A DNA stretch of 64,000 bases from an uncultured delta proteobacterium (lineage in GTDB: Bacteria > Myxococcota > UBA727 > VGSZ01), in NCBI GenBank assembly GCA_963775425.1, contig CAVZJB010000005.1, forward strand, positions 96,001 to 160,000, given 5' to 3'. Position numbers and translations under genes: made by a program. Shown here one piece after another: positions 33,222 through 39,356 of the stretch. Numbering within the stretch: the stretch's first letter is position 1; every line of letters begins with the position of its first letter. The notes under the pieces were generated by a model. The model worked only from the letters and a program-made list of their open reading frames with translations. It had not been told where the DNA came from and did no database searches.

Positions 33222-33551
33222 CTACACGACGTCGAAGGCGGAGCGGCCCTGGCGCAAGATGGCGACGCGCGTGCCGTCCTCGAGGACCACGTGCGGCCCC
33301 TGCGAGCGGTTGGCCTCGACGTGCCACGTGTCGCCCTGCTTGAGTACGCGCACGACGCCGTCCCGCATGAAGCGCAGCGAGCCCGAGAGCACCTTGCCGT
33401 TTTCCTCGCTCGGGTGCGTGAGGGCCGGGATGATCACGCCCTGCGCCGCCTCGATGACCTCGAGGGTCTTGCCGTCGACCTGGCCCAGCCGGGCGATCCG
33501 CAAGCCGCGCATACCGGGGATCTCGACGAAGGCGTTGTTTTCGACGTGCAT
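33222..33551 (-). CDS. Cupin-domain protein
   Basis: HPSEENGKVLSG.L.F...VLKQGDTWHV.AN..GPH cupin pattern. Confidence 0.7.
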   Translation of the reverse strand: MHVENNAFVEIPGMRGLRIARLGQVDGKTLEVIEAAQGVIIPALTHPSEENGKVLSGSLRFMRDGVVRVLKQGDTWHVEANRSQGPHVVLEDGTRVAILRQGRSAFDVV

Positions 33552-33600
33552 AGGGTGCGGAGCCTATCAGGGCGAAGCCACCGCGCGATAACATTGCCGC

Positions 33601-34221
33601 GTGCTGTTGCGGGCGCTCCCCCTCGTCGCCCTCTTTGTCTCGGGCATCCCGGTCGGAGACGACGGGCTGCCCGAAGAGAGCCCCTGGGCCGCCCGCGACG
33701 CCGCTGCGCCCGAGGCGGCGTGCGCCCCGCCGGTGCCGGGCTTTCTCACCCTCGAGACCAAGCCGTGGACCATCGTCTACGTCGACGGCCTCTACGCCGG
33801 CTCGACGCCGCTGTTCCGCGAGCGGCTCACCGCCGGCACGCACACGCTCACGCTGGTCAACGAGGCGCGCGCCATCTCCAGGAACGAGGACGTCGTCATC
33901 GAAGAGGGCAGGGCGCGCAAGCTCAAGCTCGTGCTCGCCGTCGACGACAGCGCGGCCGCCCTCGACAACACCACCGTCGTAGGACTGACGCCGGAGGACT
34001 GCGCGCTGCCGCCCGACGAGGCTGCGAGCCTCAGCGTCGATACGCAGCCGTGGTCGCGCGTCTTCGTCGACGGTCGGCTGGTCGGATCCACGCCGCTGTT
34101 CAAGTACGCGATCGCCGCCGGCGACCACGTTGTGCGCCTCGTGCGCGCCGACGGCAGGGCCGCCTTCGCCCGCTTCAACGCCGCCGCCGGCGAGACCGTC
34201 AAGCTCGCCCTCGCCCTGTAG
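33601..34221 (+). CDS. Exported tandem PEGA-domain protein
   Basis: Two repeats: LTLETKPWTIVYVDG..AGSTPL...AGTHTLTL and LSVDTQPWSRVFVDG..VGSTPL...AGDHVVRL. Confidence 0.85.
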   Translation: MLLRALPLVALFVSGIPVGDDGLPEESPWAARDAAAPEAACAPPVPGFLTLETKPWTIVYVDGLYAGSTPLFRERLTAGTHTLTLVNEARAISRNEDVVIEEGRARKLKLVLAVDDSAAALDNTTVVGLTPEDCALPPDEAASLSVDTQPWSRVFVDGRLVGSTPLFKYAIAAGDHVVRLVRADGRAAFARFNAAAGETVKLALAL

Positions 34222-34230
34222 GAGAAACGC

Positions 34231-34259
34231 GCACCGGATCCGCCGCAATGCCGATAACC
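34231..34259 (+). promoter_or_regulatory. Putative sigma28 (FliA/WhiG)-type promoter
   Basis: GCAC-N15-GCCGATAACC. GCCGATAA is the canonical sigma28 -10 box and ends 20 nt before the 34278 ATG. Confidence 0.6.
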
Positions 34260-34277
34260 GAGTGCCGGGAGGTTTCG

Positions 34278-35075
34278 ATGTCCACGATGTCCCTGACGCA
34301 CAACCCCGTCTCCGACCTGATGCACCTGCGCTGGGGCGTGAGCTCCGTGAAGACGGCGCAGGCGACCATCCAGGCGCAAAACGTCCGCGGCGTCGGGTCC
34401 TTCCTGCAGAGCTTCGGCGTCAGCGGCTCCACGCTCGAGCGCCTCGGCATGAGCTCGGTGAACGCCCAGGCGGTGCTCGGGGCCGAGGGGTGGCGCGGCA
34501 GCGTCAACGTCTCGCGCCAGCTCTCCCAGAGCCTCACGTCCACCCGCCCGGTGTCGACGCTGCTCGAGAGCGTGCGCAACGGCTGGGGCTCGTTCGAGAC
34601 CCAGATGCCCCGGCTCTCCGGCGCGGCCAAGAGCGCCGCCGGCGTCTGCAAGTCCGCGGCGACGGGGCTCGCCGGCGGCTGCAAGAGCGCGCTGGCGGCC
34701 GCCAAGTCGAGCGGCTTCTTCGGGAGCATCTTCAACGGCGTCAGCGGCCTGATGTCGAGCGTGGGGCGCGTCGCGGGACCGATCCTCGGGCCGCTGGCCA
34801 AGATCGCCGCGCCCATCACCAACGCGCTCAAGGGCGTCGGCAACTTCATGCGGATGATCCCGGGGCTCAACCTGATCTTCGCCGCCACCGACACCTTCAA
34901 GGCCGTCACCTCCCTGTTCGACCCGAACAAGAGCTGGAGCGAGAAGCTCGCCAACCTCGGCAAGGCCGCGCTGTCCATCGGCGCCGCCCTCCCCATCCCG
35001 GGCGCCTCGCTCCTCGGCGGCGCCCGCGGCGCCTGGGCCATCGGCGACGCGGCCGGGAGCCTGCTCGGGAAGTGA
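34278..35075 (+). CDS. Hypothetical Ser/Gly/Ala-rich amphipathic protein without signal peptide (candidate secreted effector/translocator)
   Basis: GGAGG RBS, Ser/Thr-rich N-terminus, hydrophobic/amphipathic C-terminal half (IPGLNLIFAATDTFKAV...ALSIGAALPIPG). Confidence 0.75.
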   Translation: MSTMSLTHNPVSDLMHLRWGVSSVKTAQATIQAQNVRGVGSFLQSFGVSGSTLERLGMSSVNAQAVLGAEGWRGSVNVSRQLSQSLTSTRPVSTLLESVRNGWGSFETQMPRLSGAAKSAAGVCKSAATGLAGGCKSALAAAKSSGFFGSIFNGVSGLMSSVGRVAGPILGPLAKIAAPITNALKGVGNFMRMIPGLNLIFAATDTFKAVTSLFDPNKSWSEKLANLGKAALSIGAALPIPGASLLGGARGAWAIGDAAGSLLGK

Positions 35076-35096
35076 CGACCCGCGTATAGTTCGCGC

Positions 35097-36128
35097 GTGG
35101 CGTTCAACCTCAAAGACGACCCCCGGATGCGGCAGCGCCTCGAGGGCGCTGTCGGGCTCTCCCCCAAGGACATCGACGCGCCGGCGGCGGAGCTGCCGCC
35201 GCTGTCGTCCATCTCCGTCAAGCTCTCGGTCCCCGACCCTCCCGGCGAGATGGAGATCCTCGAGCGCTACCGCCAGAAGCTCCGCGACCTCGCGGTCATC
35301 ACGTCGAAGAAGCCCGGCGAGCCGGTGGCCCTCGGCGACGAGGTCTGCGTGTGCACCGTCGGGCACATCGCCGGCGCCATCTTCGCGGGCAGCATCAGGA
35401 ACAACCACTGGATGGAGATGGTCCCCGACGACTCGCTGCCGGGCTTCGTCGAGCAGCTCGCGGGCATGCCCGTCGGCGGCGCCGGCGTCATCCCCGTCGT
35501 CGTCGGCGACAAGGTCGCCGCCATGGCCGTCCGCGTCGCCGCCGCGCAGAGCGTCGACATGCCGGACCCCGAGGACCCCGCGTCCCTCGGCGTCGCCGAC
35601 ACCCTCGAGGGCACCCTGGAGGTCGTCGGACGCGAGCTGTTGCAGGAGGCCGAAGAGGCGACGCCGCTTCGGGCGATGAACGCGGTGATGAAGGAGCTCG
35701 CGACGCGCGCCGTCGTCGAGGTCCCGTCGACCGCCGTCGACGCGGAGATCCAGCGCGTCTGGCGCCTCGCCGAGGGCGACGCCTGCATCGCGCTCGGCCT
35801 CACCGTCGACGAGCAGCAGGAGGCGCTCAAGCTGTGGCTCGCCGACGCCGGCGTCCGCGCCGAGGCCACCGAGCGGCTCAAGAGCTGGGCGGCGCTCAAG
35901 GCGGTCGTGGCCAACGACGCGCTCACGCCGACGCCCGAGGGCTGGCGCCGCTTCCTTCAGTCCTTCGCGCCCGTGCTCGGGCAGACGCGGGAATTCCTCC
36001 AGGCGGAGATCGACAAGGACCCGAAGGTGAAGGCGGAGCTCGCCGAGCTCGCGTTCCAGATGCAAGTGGTCGACCACGTCATGGAGAGCGTGCGCGTCGA
36101 GATCGTGGAAAAAGCAACGGGCCCGTGA
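35097..36128 (+). CDS. Trigger-factor-like chaperone lacking the N-terminal ribosome-binding domain
   Basis: FKBP-like GDEV...GHIAG..F.GS...LPGFVEQLAGMPVG and SurA-like C-domain VEVPSTAVDAEI. No GFRxGxxP motif. Confidence 0.75.
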   Translation: MAFNLKDDPRMRQRLEGAVGLSPKDIDAPAAELPPLSSISVKLSVPDPPGEMEILERYRQKLRDLAVITSKKPGEPVALGDEVCVCTVGHIAGAIFAGSIRNNHWMEMVPDDSLPGFVEQLAGMPVGGAGVIPVVVGDKVAAMAVRVAAAQSVDMPDPEDPASLGVADTLEGTLEVVGRELLQEAEEATPLRAMNAVMKELATRAVVEVPSTAVDAEIQRVWRLAEGDACIALGLTVDEQQEALKLWLADAGVRAEATERLKSWAALKAVVANDALTPTPEGWRRFLQSFAPVLGQTREFLQAEIDKDPKVKAELAELAFQMQVVDHVMESVRVEIVEKATGP

Positions 36129-36162
36129 GGGCCCGCTGCAGTCCCACGGGTGTCGCTGCCGG

Positions 36163-36516
36163 TCACTCGATCCAGTTGGCGAACTGCGCGGCGGTGGCGT
36201 AGCCGGCGGCCCCGCCGATGGGGCCGAACGCGCTGCCGGCGACGGTGCCGCCGACGAGGGCGCCGAGGCCCACGGTGCCGCGCGCCACGTTGAGCGGGCC
36301 CTCGGCGAGGTCACCGACCATGCCCAGCGTGCCCTTGATGGCGTCGCCGGGGATGGAGGTCCAGTTGAGGGTCAGGAAGTCCTTGGCGACGGTGCCCACG
36401 GTCTTGAGCCCGTCCCACGCGGCCTTGAAGGGGCTGATGATCGTCTGGCCGACGCCCTTGACGATGTCTCCGATGCCCTTGAACGGCGCGCTGACGAGGT
36501 TGCTGAAGAAGCCCAT
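36163..36516 (-). CDS. Small Gly-rich amphipathic / glycine-zipper protein without signal peptide
   Basis: GGGAGG RBS, MGFFSNLVSAPFKGIGDIVKGVG..., C-terminal GLGALVGGTVAGSAFGPIGGAAG. Confidence 0.75.
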   Translation of the reverse strand: MGFFSNLVSAPFKGIGDIVKGVGQTIISPFKAAWDGLKTVGTVAKDFLTLNWTSIPGDAIKGTLGMVGDLAEGPLNVARGTVGLGALVGGTVAGSAFGPIGGAAGYATAAQFANWIE

Positions 36517-36558
36517 GGTGTCGCCTCCCTGATCGTGTGTGTGTGTTGGATGCGCGTT

Positions 36559-36587
36559 GGTTATCGGCGCGGGGGCCTCGGGGATGC
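36559..36587 (-). promoter_or_regulatory. Putative sigma28 (FliA/WhiG)-type promoter
   Basis: Minus strand GCAT-N15-GCCGATAACC, with the same spacing as the motif at 34231. Confidence 0.6.
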
Positions 36588-36618
36588 CTACCTCCACGCA
36601 GATCCGCGCCTACCGACG

Positions 36619-37155
36619 TCAGATGCGGCGGGGCCCCTTGCCGAGCTGGTCCGGCCGCAGCGCCCCCTCGGGCGGTTTGTCCCCCACTTTCGCGGGGATG
36701 GGACGGTCCTTGCCGCCGGTCACGGCGGTGGCGGCGACGGTGGCGGACTGCTGCTCGAAGCGCGCCTTGGTGTCCATGTCGACCAACTGGTAGCGCAGCA
36801 CCGCCTCGTTGATGAGGATCACGAGGCCGGTCGCCAGGTCGTTTTTGTGCATCTTCTGGTGGAGAAAAGCCGCCATCAACAGGAGGTCGTCGAGGGCCTT
36901 TCTGTGGGTGCTCGCCGTGCGGGCGGCGTCGAGCTGCTTCCACCAATCCGCCGCGATCTCCGGGGTCCATTGGTCGCGAAAGCCCTGGCCGTCGTCCGTG
37001 AGGAGCATCGTGAGCGTGCGCAGACAGATGTCGTGGACGCCGCGGTCCTTGAACATCTTCTCGAGCTCCGCCCACTTGGCGTCGAGCTGGGACTTCTCTT
37101 CGGGGCTGAAGCTTTCGTCGGCGCCCGGGGCGCCACCCTTGGGATCATCGGTCAT
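36619..37155 (-). CDS. Hypothetical helical cytoplasmic protein
   Basis: Coding-like codon bias, 14 nt downstream of the PP2C fusion gene. No recognisable motif. Confidence 0.7.
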   Translation of the reverse strand: MTDDPKGGAPGADESFSPEEKSQLDAKWAELEKMFKDRGVHDICLRTLTMLLTDDGQGFRDQWTPEIAADWWKQLDAARTASTHRKALDDLLLMAAFLHQKMHKNDLATGLVILINEAVLRYQLVDMDTKARFEQQSATVAATAVTGGKDRPIPAKVGDKPPEGALRPDQLGKGPRRI

Positions 37156-37169
37156 GGCGTGAGCCTACC

Positions 37170-39356
37170 TCATTGCACGGGGTGAACGGCGACGACGACG
37201 CAGGAGATGTTGTCGAATCCTCCCGCGCGGTTCGCGAGCACCACGAGCTCGAACGCGGCGCGCGCGGGGTCCTCGAATTCGAGGAGCGTCTCGAGCATCT
37301 TGAGATCGGTGTCGTTGGGGGGCGCGCCGGGGCCGGCGGCGAAGTCGGCGATGCCGTCGCTGCAGATGAGGATGCGGTCGCCGGGGAGCAGGCGCAGACG
37401 GAACGCCTCTGGCTCGAAGGGGTCGGGCCGGGTGGTGCCGTCGTCGTCGACGATGACGCGGCCGACGACGCGGGTGAGCGCGGTGCCCATCTGCACCTGC
37501 GCGGCCTCGCGGAAGGTGAGGCCCATGCGCAGCGCGTCGGTGGTGCGGTCGTGGTCGATGGTGATCTGCTCGATGACGCCGTCGCGGATGAGGTACGCGC
37601 GGGAGTCGCCGAGGTTGCCGATGGTGGCCTCGCCGTGGACCACGAACATCGCGCACATGGTGGCGCTCATGACCTGGTTGGGCTCGTTGGCGACGGGCGC
37701 GTACTTGGCGTTGACCTCGGCGCTGATGCGCTTGCCGGCGCTGCGCGAGATCTGCTTCATGATGTCGGCGCGCTGCCCGTGGTTGAGCTCGAGGGCCGCC
37801 TGGCCGCCCTTCTCGAGGCCCGTCCAGCGCTGCAGCGCCGCGATCTCCACCTGCTCCGCGGCGAAGGCGCCGTCGCCGAACTTCGAGCGCGAGACGCCGT
37901 CGGAGATCATGTAGAGGCCGATGCGCGCGTTCTCGTCGGTGACGGAGAGCGCGCGGTCCTGTTGGCCCGAGCCGCGGCGCGCCTTGGCGAGACCGGTGTG
38001 CTGCTCGGCCCACGCCTCGAGGACGACGTCGGACTGGCTCTCCGCCGCGCGCGCCTCCTCGATGAGGCGCGTGCGCGCCTGCTCGAGCGCGCGCTTGAGG
38101 GCGCGCGCCCAGCCGACGCGGCGGGCGGGGTTGGGCTCGAGGCACGGGCGCAGATACGGCCAGATGCCGAGCGGGCACTCCGGGCGGAACACGCGCGGCG
38201 ACACGAGCATCGCGGGCTCGACGTCGGTCTCGAGCGGCGCGCGCTTGGCGAGCAGCGCGTACAACAGGAGCGCCACCGAATACACGTCGCTGTGCGCGCC
38301 CATGCGGTACGTCATGCGCCGCCGCACCTCGGGCGCGCAAAACAGGCCGAGGGCGCCGGTGGGCAGCGCCCCGGCGCCGTACAGGCCGCTCACGGCGTAG
38401 AAGCGGACGCGCCCGCCCCGCTCGATGACGATCTGGCTCGGGTCGAGGTCGTAGATGAACTGCCCGGCGCCGTGGAGGCTCTCGAGCAGCTCCGCCAGCT
38501 CGATGCCGAGCTCGAGCGTGGCCATGGCGGGGAGGATGCGCTCGTCGTCGTTGAGGTAGTCGACGACGGTGTTTCCCTTGGGCCGCTCGAAGACGCGTAC
38601 CGCAGCGCGCTCGAGGGTGACGCGGCAGCGCGGGCGCACCACGCGCGGATCGGGGAGGTGCGGCCAGGGCGGCTCCGGCATGGTGGTGGCCGTCCACACC
38701 GCGGTGAACGCCTGCTCCTCTCCCTCGAGCCGGGCTCGATAGAAGACGCTGCCGTTCTGCTCGCCGAGGGAGTCCTCGAGCTTGACCACCAGGCCGTCGT
38801 CGGCCCGGAGCGGCTCGCCGGGCTCCGGGGGCAGGGGGCCGACGTCGGTGCCGGCGTCCTCGACGATGGGCGCGCCCTCGACGGTGGCGCCGTCCTCCAC
38901 GGGCTCTTGATCGTTCGACTTCTCGTCCTGCGTGCCGGGGCCCCGGAGGGGAATCTCGAGATCCGCGGTCTTCTCCTGCAGGGGGTCGTTGTCGTCGCTG
39001 TATGCCGGGAGCGACGCCGCCGTGAGCTCGTCGAAGGGCAGCGCCGCGACGTCGCCGGGCGGGAGCGTGGCCGCTGCCTCGACGACGGCCTCGAGGACGT
39101 CGGGCGGCCCGATGTTCGCCGCGGCGGGGGGGACGGGGTCATCGGCCCCATCGAGGGCGGCCAGCAAGGGCTTGCTGACCTCGGCCGTGGGCCCCTCGAA
39201 GGGATCGCCGCTGACGAGATCTCCGAGCGGATCCGACGAGGGCATCGTCGCGCGGTGCGCGATGCTCGGGCGCTCCGTGGTGGCCTCGGACAACACCTCC
39301 ACCTGCGCCGGCACGGGTCCGGTCGTCGGCTTCTTGTTGTCCGGAGGGTTCGTCAC
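37170..39356 (-). CDS. Pseudokinase - PP2C/SpoIIE-type Ser/Thr phosphatase fusion with acidic disordered N-terminus
   Basis: PP2C motifs SDG, GDSRAY, CSDG and DNIS are intact. The kinase-like part keeps APE and SDVYS but reads IYDLDPSQ and has no VAIK/DFG. Confidence 0.8.
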   Translation of the reverse strand: MTNPPDNKKPTTGPVPAQVEVLSEATTERPSIAHRATMPSSDPLGDLVSGDPFEGPTAEVSKPLLAALDGADDPVPPAAANIGPPDVLEAVVEAAATLPPGDVAALPFDELTAASLPAYSDDNDPLQEKTADLEIPLRGPGTQDEKSNDQEPVEDGATVEGAPIVEDAGTDVGPLPPEPGEPLRADDGLVVKLEDSLGEQNGSVFYRARLEGEEQAFTAVWTATTMPEPPWPHLPDPRVVRPRCRVTLERAAVRVFERPKGNTVVDYLNDDERILPAMATLELGIELAELLESLHGAGQFIYDLDPSQIVIERGGRVRFYAVSGLYGAGALPTGALGLFCAPEVRRRMTYRMGAHSDVYSVALLLYALLAKRAPLETDVEPAMLVSPRVFRPECPLGIWPYLRPCLEPNPARRVGWARALKRALEQARTRLIEEARAAESQSDVVLEAWAEQHTGLAKARRGSGQQDRALSVTDENARIGLYMISDGVSRSKFGDGAFAAEQVEIAALQRWTGLEKGGQAALELNHGQRADIMKQISRSAGKRISAEVNAKYAPVANEPNQVMSATMCAMFVVHGEATIGNLGDSRAYLIRDGVIEQITIDHDRTTDALRMGLTFREAAQVQMGTALTRVVGRVIVDDDGTTRPDPFEPEAFRLRLLPGDRILICSDGIADFAAGPGAPPNDTDLKMLETLLEFEDPARAAFELVVLANRAGGFDNISCVVVAVHPVQ

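Follow-up and report, generated by a model that had tools for sequence, protein, structure and literature searches.

Candidate client and partner modules behind a sigma28-like promoter box in an uncultured member of the Myxococcota

Introduction

Why should two small, unrelated proteins without recognizable export signals stand behind the same promoter-like 10-mer, with a paralogue of trigger factor (TF) encoded between them? The question is raised by positions 34,231 to 37,155 of a 64,000-nucleotide stretch of DNA, here called the window, from an uncultured delta proteobacterium of the phylum Myxococcota (assembly GCA_963775425.1, contig CAVZJB010000005.1, positions 96,001 to 160,000; G000:C5:96001-160000 in our numbering). 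The genome, G000, comprises 8.26 Mb in 18 contigs at 72% GC and is 94.5% complete. Four genes are concerned: A and C, which encode the two signal-less proteins, the TF paralogue that follows A, and D, which precedes C on the opposite strand (Table 1).

An earlier note, made from the nucleotide sequence alone, read this locus as an orphan cassette of membrane-active proteins transcribed under the flagellar sigma factor sigma28 (FliA), exported by a type III route, and served by the TF homolog as chaperone. Overall, a reading that combines sigma28, type III export and a chaperone is plausible, and that first reading is partly supported. Our best explanation treats the locus as two convergent modules, each a client plus a dedicated cytosolic partner, with the TF paralogue belonging to A and D to C. 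Taken jointly with the promoter and export steps set out below, it is held tentatively, as having a somewhat less than even claim to be right.

Table 1. Features of the locus in window coordinates, followed by the second cassette in contig and locus coordinates
Feature	Position	Strand	Description
Box GCCGATAACC upstream of A	34250..34259	+	sigma28 -10 consensus GCCGATAA plus CC
Ribosome-binding site of A	34267..34272	+	GGGAGG, 5 nt before ATG
Gene A	34278..35075	+	265 aa, signal-less, cationic, no Pfam or NCBIfam family
TF paralogue	35097..36128	+	343 aa, FKBP-like and C-terminal "arm" domains, without ribosome-binding N domain
Intrinsic-terminator-like hairpin after C	36114..36139	-	11 pairs, 9 GC, then TTTTT
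Gene C	36163..36516	-	117 aa, signal-less, Gly 19%, glycine-zipper-like C-terminal half, no Pfam/NCBIfam family
Ribosome-binding site of C	36524..36529	-	GGGAGG (as CCTCCC)
Box GCCGATAACC upstream of C	36559..36568	-	same 10-mer
Gene D	36619..37155	-	178 aa, helical, mildly acidic, no known family
Cassette 2 (client and N-less TF)	L093:219-3020 = G000:C7:238519-241320
Second N-less TF paralogue	C7:240037-241320		28% identity with the window's TF paralogue

Signal-less proteins and their proposed cytosolic partners

A and C are real genes by codon usage and are conserved in metagenomes. The GC content at third codon positions (GC3) is 0.99 in A and 0.97 in C, and the metagenomic relatives number ten for A (45-71% identity) and three for C (66-68%). 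Glycine, alanine and serine together make up 40% of A, which has a net charge of +14 and a strongly conserved C-terminal module, GKAALSIGAALPIPGASLLGG; C is rich in the same three residues. The absence of a signal from both was judged by a Kyte-Doolittle heuristic. Over the first 40 residues the maximum 10-residue mean is 0.35 in A and 1.3 in C, and neither protein has a hydrophobic N-terminal stretch. The two proteins are not homologous (hhalign probability 0.9%), and the earlier description of two unrelated, signal-less, Gly/Ala/Ser-rich proteins behind strong ribosome-binding sites holds, coordinates included. The AlphaFold model of A is helical and of low confidence (pLDDT 42.4, too poor for a fold search), and searches of the ESM Atlas with A and C gave sub-threshold matches only.

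The protein encoded after A is a trigger factor homolog without the ribosome-docking domain, as first described. Its only Pfam match is Trigger_C (36.4 bits). Against the tig model TIGR00115 it scores 80.4 bits, where the cut-off is 180.2, and aligns to profile positions 103-409 of 410; positions 1-102 are absent, which leaves it outside the tig equivalog. Its AlphaFold model (pLDDT 77.9, residues 1-22 disordered) retrieves trigger factors as all of the best eight Foldseek matches, led by that of E. coli (1w26_A, E 8.6e-14). In place of the N domain it carries a nearly invariant peptide of 35 residues, AFNLKDDPRM..KDIDAP. The genome holds one complete tig (C16:847471-848694, 349 bits) and two N-less copies.

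The start of the TF paralogue is a GTG with no Shine-Dalgarno sequence 21 nt past the stop of A, and from this spacing the two genes are probably co-transcribed. They also appear to co-occur elsewhere. Homologs of A and of the TF paralogue were found on contigs of equal size twice, at 38,935 bp (P0002/P0019) and 2,710 bp (P0006/P0017), from which we infer co-location, and in a 1.6-kb metagenome locus, L014, the gene that comes after an A-type C-terminus encodes a protein whose initial 33 residues match the N-terminal peptide of the TF paralogue. A profile search with the A or TF alignment on genome contigs, and with the A alignment on metagenome contigs, gave no locus; with the TF alignment the metagenome contigs gave L014 only. 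The downstream gene of L014 (58-1431) is not a TF: it starts MAFNLKDDPRM..KDI..PAA and continues into a helical body of the acyl-CoA-dehydrogenase-C-like kind. Found on a non-TF protein, the peptide behaves as a portable N-terminal module; a search of G000 for other proteins that carry it returned only the TF gene itself.

Gene C is followed by a terminator-like hairpin and is for that reason taken as a monocistronic unit. Homologs of D, at 25-31% identity, occur at seven loci in five relatives, and four of eight D-family loci, G000 counted, have an adjacent C-like gene of 103-117 residues. Comparison of C with these C-like genes by hhalign gives a probability of 72% (E 3.4e-5). With a box and a terminator of its own for C, and with D-C pairs recurring in relatives, the TF paralogue would partner A and D likely partners C. 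D is thus a likely dedicated partner of C, either chaperone or immunity-like. The suggestion that the TF homolog serves both small proteins may stand for A, beside which it lies and with which it appears to co-occur on other contigs; it does not stand for C, which has its own promoter, terminator and partner.

Small, signal-less, Gly-rich proteins with an adjacent partner gene would also be expected of a contact-dependent system such as type VI secretion, in which A and C would be glycine-zipper pore-forming toxins and their neighbors immunity proteins. We take A and C to resemble effectors of the Tse4/Ssp6 type in this respect. Such a role is nevertheless very improbable: no match to TssC/VipB (PF05943) was found in the 94.5%-complete genome, and the partner of A has a soluble chaperone fold, not that of a membrane immunity protein.

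The cassette is not an orphan, as had been thought. A second, family-conserved cassette on contig C7 again joins a signal-less Gly-rich protein to an N-less TF. Its client, a signal-less Q/G-rich protein of 486 residues with a highly conserved C-terminus (..QMQQAMSNVLNTMDELAKSAIRHIKAG), lies upstream of the TF gene and is not homologous to A. The TF paralogue was found in nine of ten family genomes, and the client lies upstream of it in 8 of the 9 loci examined, out of 12 non-self loci, which makes the neighborhood of this second N-truncated TF a conserved one. The pairing of two unrelated clients with N-less TFs, together with the recurrence of D next to C, speaks for dedicated over general partners. 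The C-terminus of the cassette-2 client may look like a needle protein, to go by our impression; when profiles of this client and of D were searched against Protein Data Bank sequences, there was no meaningful match, and none to a solved translocator or needle protein.

A promoter-like box with genome-wide upstream bias

All eight bases of GCCGATAA, at 34250-34257 (+) and at 36568-36561 (-), equal the sigma28 -10 consensus in its -15 to -8 register (PMC12784957), and the box is to this extent of the FliA/sigma28 -10 type, as proposed. It would place the transcription start of A near 34265, with a leader of about 13 nt, and that of C near 36553, with a leader of about 37 nt.

Within the window, GCCGATAA occurs twice where 0.46 occurrences are expected, and 12 of 100 shuffles of the window contain at least two. 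The window alone is therefore not significant, and taken alone it would leave room for a shared 10-mer that is coincidental and functionless. The genome as a whole gives that idea hardly any credence. Gene calls came from our own crude GC3-based caller (5,927 genes, 86.6% coding; A, which it overlooked, and C, which it made too long, were corrected by hand), and 4,314 oriented non-coding segments, reaching up to 120 nt before start codons, made up the upstream set. The 8-mer CCGATAAC has 23 copies in the genome, of which 13 lie in these segments, those of A and C being two of the 13, as opposed to two for its reverse complement. Ranked by count against 1,120 permutations of its own letters (mean 2.08), it comes third. 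Among 8-mers with at least eight upstream occurrences, it groups with TAG-containing words, which we assume to be housekeeping -10 boxes. The form CCGATAA[CT] lies upstream of genes at 18 of its 33 sites, most of them separated from the start codon by 19-53 nt; three sites are only 5-7 nt from it, as leaderless transcripts would show. On the strength of this genome-wide bias in position and orientation, the box is not a chance word. It behaves as a real, orientation-specific promoter-like element, and related boxes before C-like and cassette-2 orthologs in other genera likewise oppose coincidence.

Besides A and C, the box heads about 18 genes. Most of their products are predicted to be extracytoplasmic, about half of these having no Sec or Tat signal, and a few are apparently cytoplasmic; the survey consists of Pfam searches on 16 downstream proteins and inspection of N-termini. 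The eight signal-less entries, out of about 19 box-headed genes, are A, C, an APP1-type lipid phosphatase, a protein with PG_binding_1 and Phage_lysozyme2, one with PG_binding_1 twice (2x), a LysM protein of 1,450 residues, a Gly-rich protein of 146 residues and a protein of 268 residues. About seven further products start with a signal of the Sec, Tat or lipoprotein kind, among them a phosphoesterase with a Tat signal and several lipoproteins. The expectation that the box would mark signal-less proteins is thus borne out by the first group and offset by the second. The N-termini of nine signal-less candidates are enriched in S/T/N/P/Q (0.324, background 0.242, resampling p 0.025), which is weak support, as we chose the set ourselves.

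Two of the box-headed families show promoter arrangements of their own. Paralogous PG_binding_1 genes diverge from a single intergenic region (L024:169-294; G000:C12:106585-106710) that has a CCGATAA box in each orientation. The APP1 orthologs at L074, L075 and L076 (G004, G006 and G002) have in common a conserved GCCGAAAC at a distance of exactly 7 nt from the ATG, an arrangement compatible with leaderless transcription from a related -10 box.

Sigma factors and type III components

The earlier note would have been contradicted by a genome without a sigma28-family factor or export apparatus; this genome encodes three such sigmas, a flagellum and parts of a second type III system. Scored with TIGR02479, the three FliA/WhiG-type sigmas reach 210.4 bits (above the cut-off), 186-188 bits and 154 bits. 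The first FliA retains the YAxIRIRGA..DWxPRSV of Pseudomonas FliA (147 bits to 9wsm_F), and the second is more diverged (105 bits). The 154-bit sigma is an orphan, at C13:131332-132138, and all members of the family conserve it, at E 1e-40 or better.

A complete flagellar set is encoded on contig C9, where Pfam searches of 49 proteins identified FliS, FliD, flagellin, FlgL/K/I/H/G, FlhA/F/G and MotA/B, with FlgC/E/D, FliE/F/H/I/L/M/N/O/P/Q/R and FlhB in addition. The cluster spans G000:C9:329947-381252 (L011:447-19576, L012:13-18376, L013:9-13552). Two FliA paralogues, 40% identical (C9:348363-349076 and C9:343362-344087), flank flhA-flhF-flhG there, and the cluster also contains two sigma54 activators and a PilT-like ATPase gene before flbD-motAB.

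A second, dispersed set of paralogues (SctN, SctR, SctQ, SctJ, SctV and SctU) resembles the needle-less type III secretion system (T3SS*). An operon of this type at G000:C9:110084-122671 (-) encodes an FHA protein, SctN, several small proteins, SctQ, a possible FliO-like protein assigned by position only, SctR, SctS and SctT. The sequence AAC-N15-GCGATA, weak on its own, is found 55 nt ahead of the FHA gene, the first of the operon. Locus L008 (G000:C4:94355-96505) holds an orphan FHIPEP gene (FlhA/SctV-like), 34% identical to flagellar FlhA and far from other type III genes; its neighbors, inspected by eye, look like sugar-nucleotide, glycosyltransferase and ABC-transporter genes. The statement that no secretion machinery lies in the window agrees with a tblastn search in which 13 flagellar proteins of G000 had no paralogue on contig C5, a result obtained without annotating the remainder of the window.

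Footprints of the promoter can be followed into relatives. The cassette-2 promoter, GGAAACC-N14-GCGATACT, has identical spacing in G000, G002, G004 and G006, and G003 has GAAAC-N16-CGATAACC instead. C-like genes in G002 have CCGATAGCC and GCGATAACC 24-25 nt upstream, and the copy in G004 is degenerate. In G006, at 92% completeness in 20 contigs, flagellin and FliI are missing and no FliA scores above about 156 bits, and there is one type III ATPase where relatives have two; G006 keeps both the cassette-2 promoter and the orphan sigma. Because the promoter is kept there without flagella, the orphan WhiG-like sigma together with T3SS* is favored over FliA together with the flagellum. Alternatively, G006 may have lost its flagella only recently.

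These results suggest the following course of events. A and C would be transcribed from a FliA/WhiG (sigma28)-type -10 element, (G)CCGATAAC(C), read by one of the three sigmas, the best candidate being the orphan, non-flagellar one on C13. The TF paralogue and D would bind their aggregation-prone, Gly-rich clients and hold them in the cytoplasm. Export of the clients would then follow a type III-type path, for which T3SS* is a likelier candidate than the flagellum, and once outside they would act on membranes. Export, membrane activity and chaperone binding of A and C are putative, as is the contact killing considered in the earlier note. A bolder form of the same idea, to which we assign a low probability, has a FliA/WhiG-type sigma uncoupled from the flagellum driving signal-less, wall- or membrane-directed proteins that would be the sought-after T3SS* substrates of the Myxococcota, with N-less TFs and D as a new class of export chaperone and the 35-residue peptide as a tag that docks at the export gate.

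Weighing the promoter and the export route

A number of findings count against this explanation, in the first place those on the promoter. The -35 element TAAA(G), expected about 15 nt upstream of the box, is absent and GCAC or GCAT stands in its place; contacts with the -35 region are described as essential for recognition of sigma28 promoters (PMC12784957). The fuller motif of the earlier note, GCAY-N15-box, is present at both genes (GCAC-N15-GCCGATAACC at 34231-34259 (+) and GCAT-N15-GCCGATAACC at 36587-36559 (-)), and its box is significant genome-wide, but GCAY is not a conserved -35: no column upstream of the 18 sites is conserved (maximum 0.51 bits), so that GCAY probably arose by chance or reflects no more than a slight bias towards AC. 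Nor is the box a late flagellar promoter. No gene of the flagellar cluster (C9:329-384 kb) carries a CCGATAA-like box, and no CGATA core occurs upstream of flagellin, flgM, flgKL, fliDS or motAB, the upstream regions of flagellin and flgM looking different. Two weak sites with a CGATA core precede other genes of the cluster (5/9 and 6/9), and matches of at least 7/9 there have other cores and lie mostly within upstream coding sequence. In four of five relatives copies of CCGATAAC do not exceed those of a reversed-pattern control, the exception being G014, of lower GC, with 155 versus 68, and most of six sampled sites per genome fall inside genes. Orthologs of two box-headed genes carry only related words in its place, TCGATACT in the case of the lysozyme-protein ortholog of G009 and GCCGAAAC in that of the APP1 orthologs of three genus-g3 genomes.

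Several of these points would be accommodated if the box were the -10 element of a factor outside the sigma28 family, for example one of the extracytoplasmic function (ECF) type, reading AAC-N16-CGATA and governing an envelope or secretome regulon independent of both flagella and type III export. We take the AAC-N16-CGATA form to be like that of ECF promoters. The conserved cassette-2 promoter can be written GGAAAC-N16-CGATAC, and AAC at N15-17 from CGATA is found upstream of genes at 15 of 61 sites (25%), versus 14% and 12% at control spacings. The box-headed genes with Sec, Tat or lipoprotein signals, and the absence of the box from flagellar genes, also suit such a regulon. Against it stand the exact 8/8 agreement of GCCGATAA with the sigma28 consensus before A and C, the fact that only a few of the 18 sites have AAC at the required distance, and the conservation of the orphan FliA/WhiG-type sigma across the family. 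On balance we consider an ECF-type factor improbable, though still in contention, and retain the FliA/WhiG-type sigma.

Further difficulties attach to export. In hydrophobicity A and C peak at KD19 values of 1.41 and 1.44, short of the threshold commonly applied to transmembrane segments. The core type III genes are spread over contigs C9, C4 and C16, with none on C5, so the cassette is not beside a type III locus. Searches of 60 relatives and of the species-representative genome collection found none of A, C and the TF-like gene, the query with A giving a single weak match with stop codons among the 60 relatives. With about seven products that carry signals, the box-headed set is not specific to signal-less proteins. 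Finally, the N-less TF homologs of Myxococcus xanthus did not bind ribosomes, and knock-outs of the three paralogues had no predation defect and behaved as expected of general chaperones (PMC11559001).

Alternatively, A and C would not be exported at all and would be intracellular or inner-membrane-associated proteins of a developmental or stress program under a WhiG-like sigma, with the N-less TF a sub-functionalized general chaperone that shares a transcript with A by chance. WhiG-like sigmas run such a program in Streptomyces sporulation. A and C have no export signal, secretion-system neighbor or known effector domain. The N-deficient TF homologs of M. xanthus are presented as general and sub-functionalized, with sporulation and stress phenotypes in the mutants (PMC11559001), and Actinomycetota have co-opted sigma28-family factors for development unrelated to flagella (PMC13595943). 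Two observations fit poorly. The peptidoglycan-binding, lysozyme or LysM domains of several box-headed products without a signal have no substrate in the cytoplasm, and apparently dedicated pairings recur, both of unrelated clients with N-less TFs and of D with C. We judge retention in the cell to be unlikely, though a serious contender, and continue to prefer export of A and C.

Comparison with known systems

Both N-less TF paralogues and sigma28 regulons that extend beyond flagella have been described. About 77% of the attack-phase genes of Bdellovibrio, a Tad operon among them, are under FliA control (PMC5430801), and in Campylobacter jejuni non-flagellar proteins are secreted through the flagellar export apparatus (PMC5223770). 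The present genome resembles these two in having a GCCGATAA-type -10 before non-flagellar genes, together with FliA-type sigmas and flagellar export. It differs in that its flagellar genes have no box, the TAAA -35 is missing, the sigmas number three paralogues, and the related promoter survives in a relative without flagella, G006.

M. xanthus has N-deficient TF homologs (MXAN_1178, 1713 and 6153) beside one complete TF (PMC11559001), and G000 follows that pattern with its one complete tig and N-less copies. PceT (PceT/RdhT) is a TF-family chaperone dedicated to one neighboring client (PMC8905343); that client is an enzyme with a Tat signal, whereas the clients in G000 are signal-less Gly-rich proteins. 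Unlike either precedent, the TF paralogue of the window bears a 35-residue peptide that also heads a non-TF protein, that of L014, and the passages of PMC11559001 and PMC8905343 consulted describe no conserved pairing with an upstream client.

Type III translocators with class II chaperones, and harpins, offer a further likeness, a signal-less, amphipathic, Gly-rich protein encoded beside a cytosolic partner. Here the partner has a TF fold or an unmatched fold in place of the tetratricopeptide (TPR) fold, there is no clear transmembrane segment, and profiles of the cassette-2 client and D resemble no solved translocator or needle protein among the database sequences searched. The dispersed SctN/R/Q/J/V/U paralogues that accompany the flagellar set in G000 parallel the needle-less T3SS* of M. 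xanthus, in which that system is required for prey lysis (PMC10849154). None of A, TF, C and D lies in or next to a T3SS* locus, the only link being the weak AAC-N15-GCGATA before the FHA gene.

The passages of PMC10849154 consulted name no T3SS* substrates, and the locus and its roughly 18 other box-headed genes supply a short candidate list. The promoter box combined with a missing signal peptide is a simple handle for finding more candidates. The pairings suggest that N-less TFs, described as general chaperones, can be tied to single neighboring clients. Even if export is not confirmed, the finding would define a sigma28-family regulon separate from the flagellar genes; in one limited literature collection we found no report of a sigma28-type regulon in Myxococcota or of cassettes of a TF paralogue and client.

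Further observations on the locus and its relatives

An Rfam scan of window positions 33500-37500 gave no match. Two TAAA-N15-CCGATAAC-like sites in G014 were considered as flagellar promoters and set aside, since flagellar genes are not downstream of them. The relatives placed in the same order include 21 genomes of 0.3-3.4 Mb (family f6), unexpected beside an 8-Mb genome; because of these small genomes, comparison at the level of the order says little on the lineage of G000. Directly upstream of D, across a gap of 14 nt, window positions 37170-39356 (-) encode a protein of 728 residues with a PP2C phosphatase domain and a very weak match to protein kinase (19 bits, below the cut-off).

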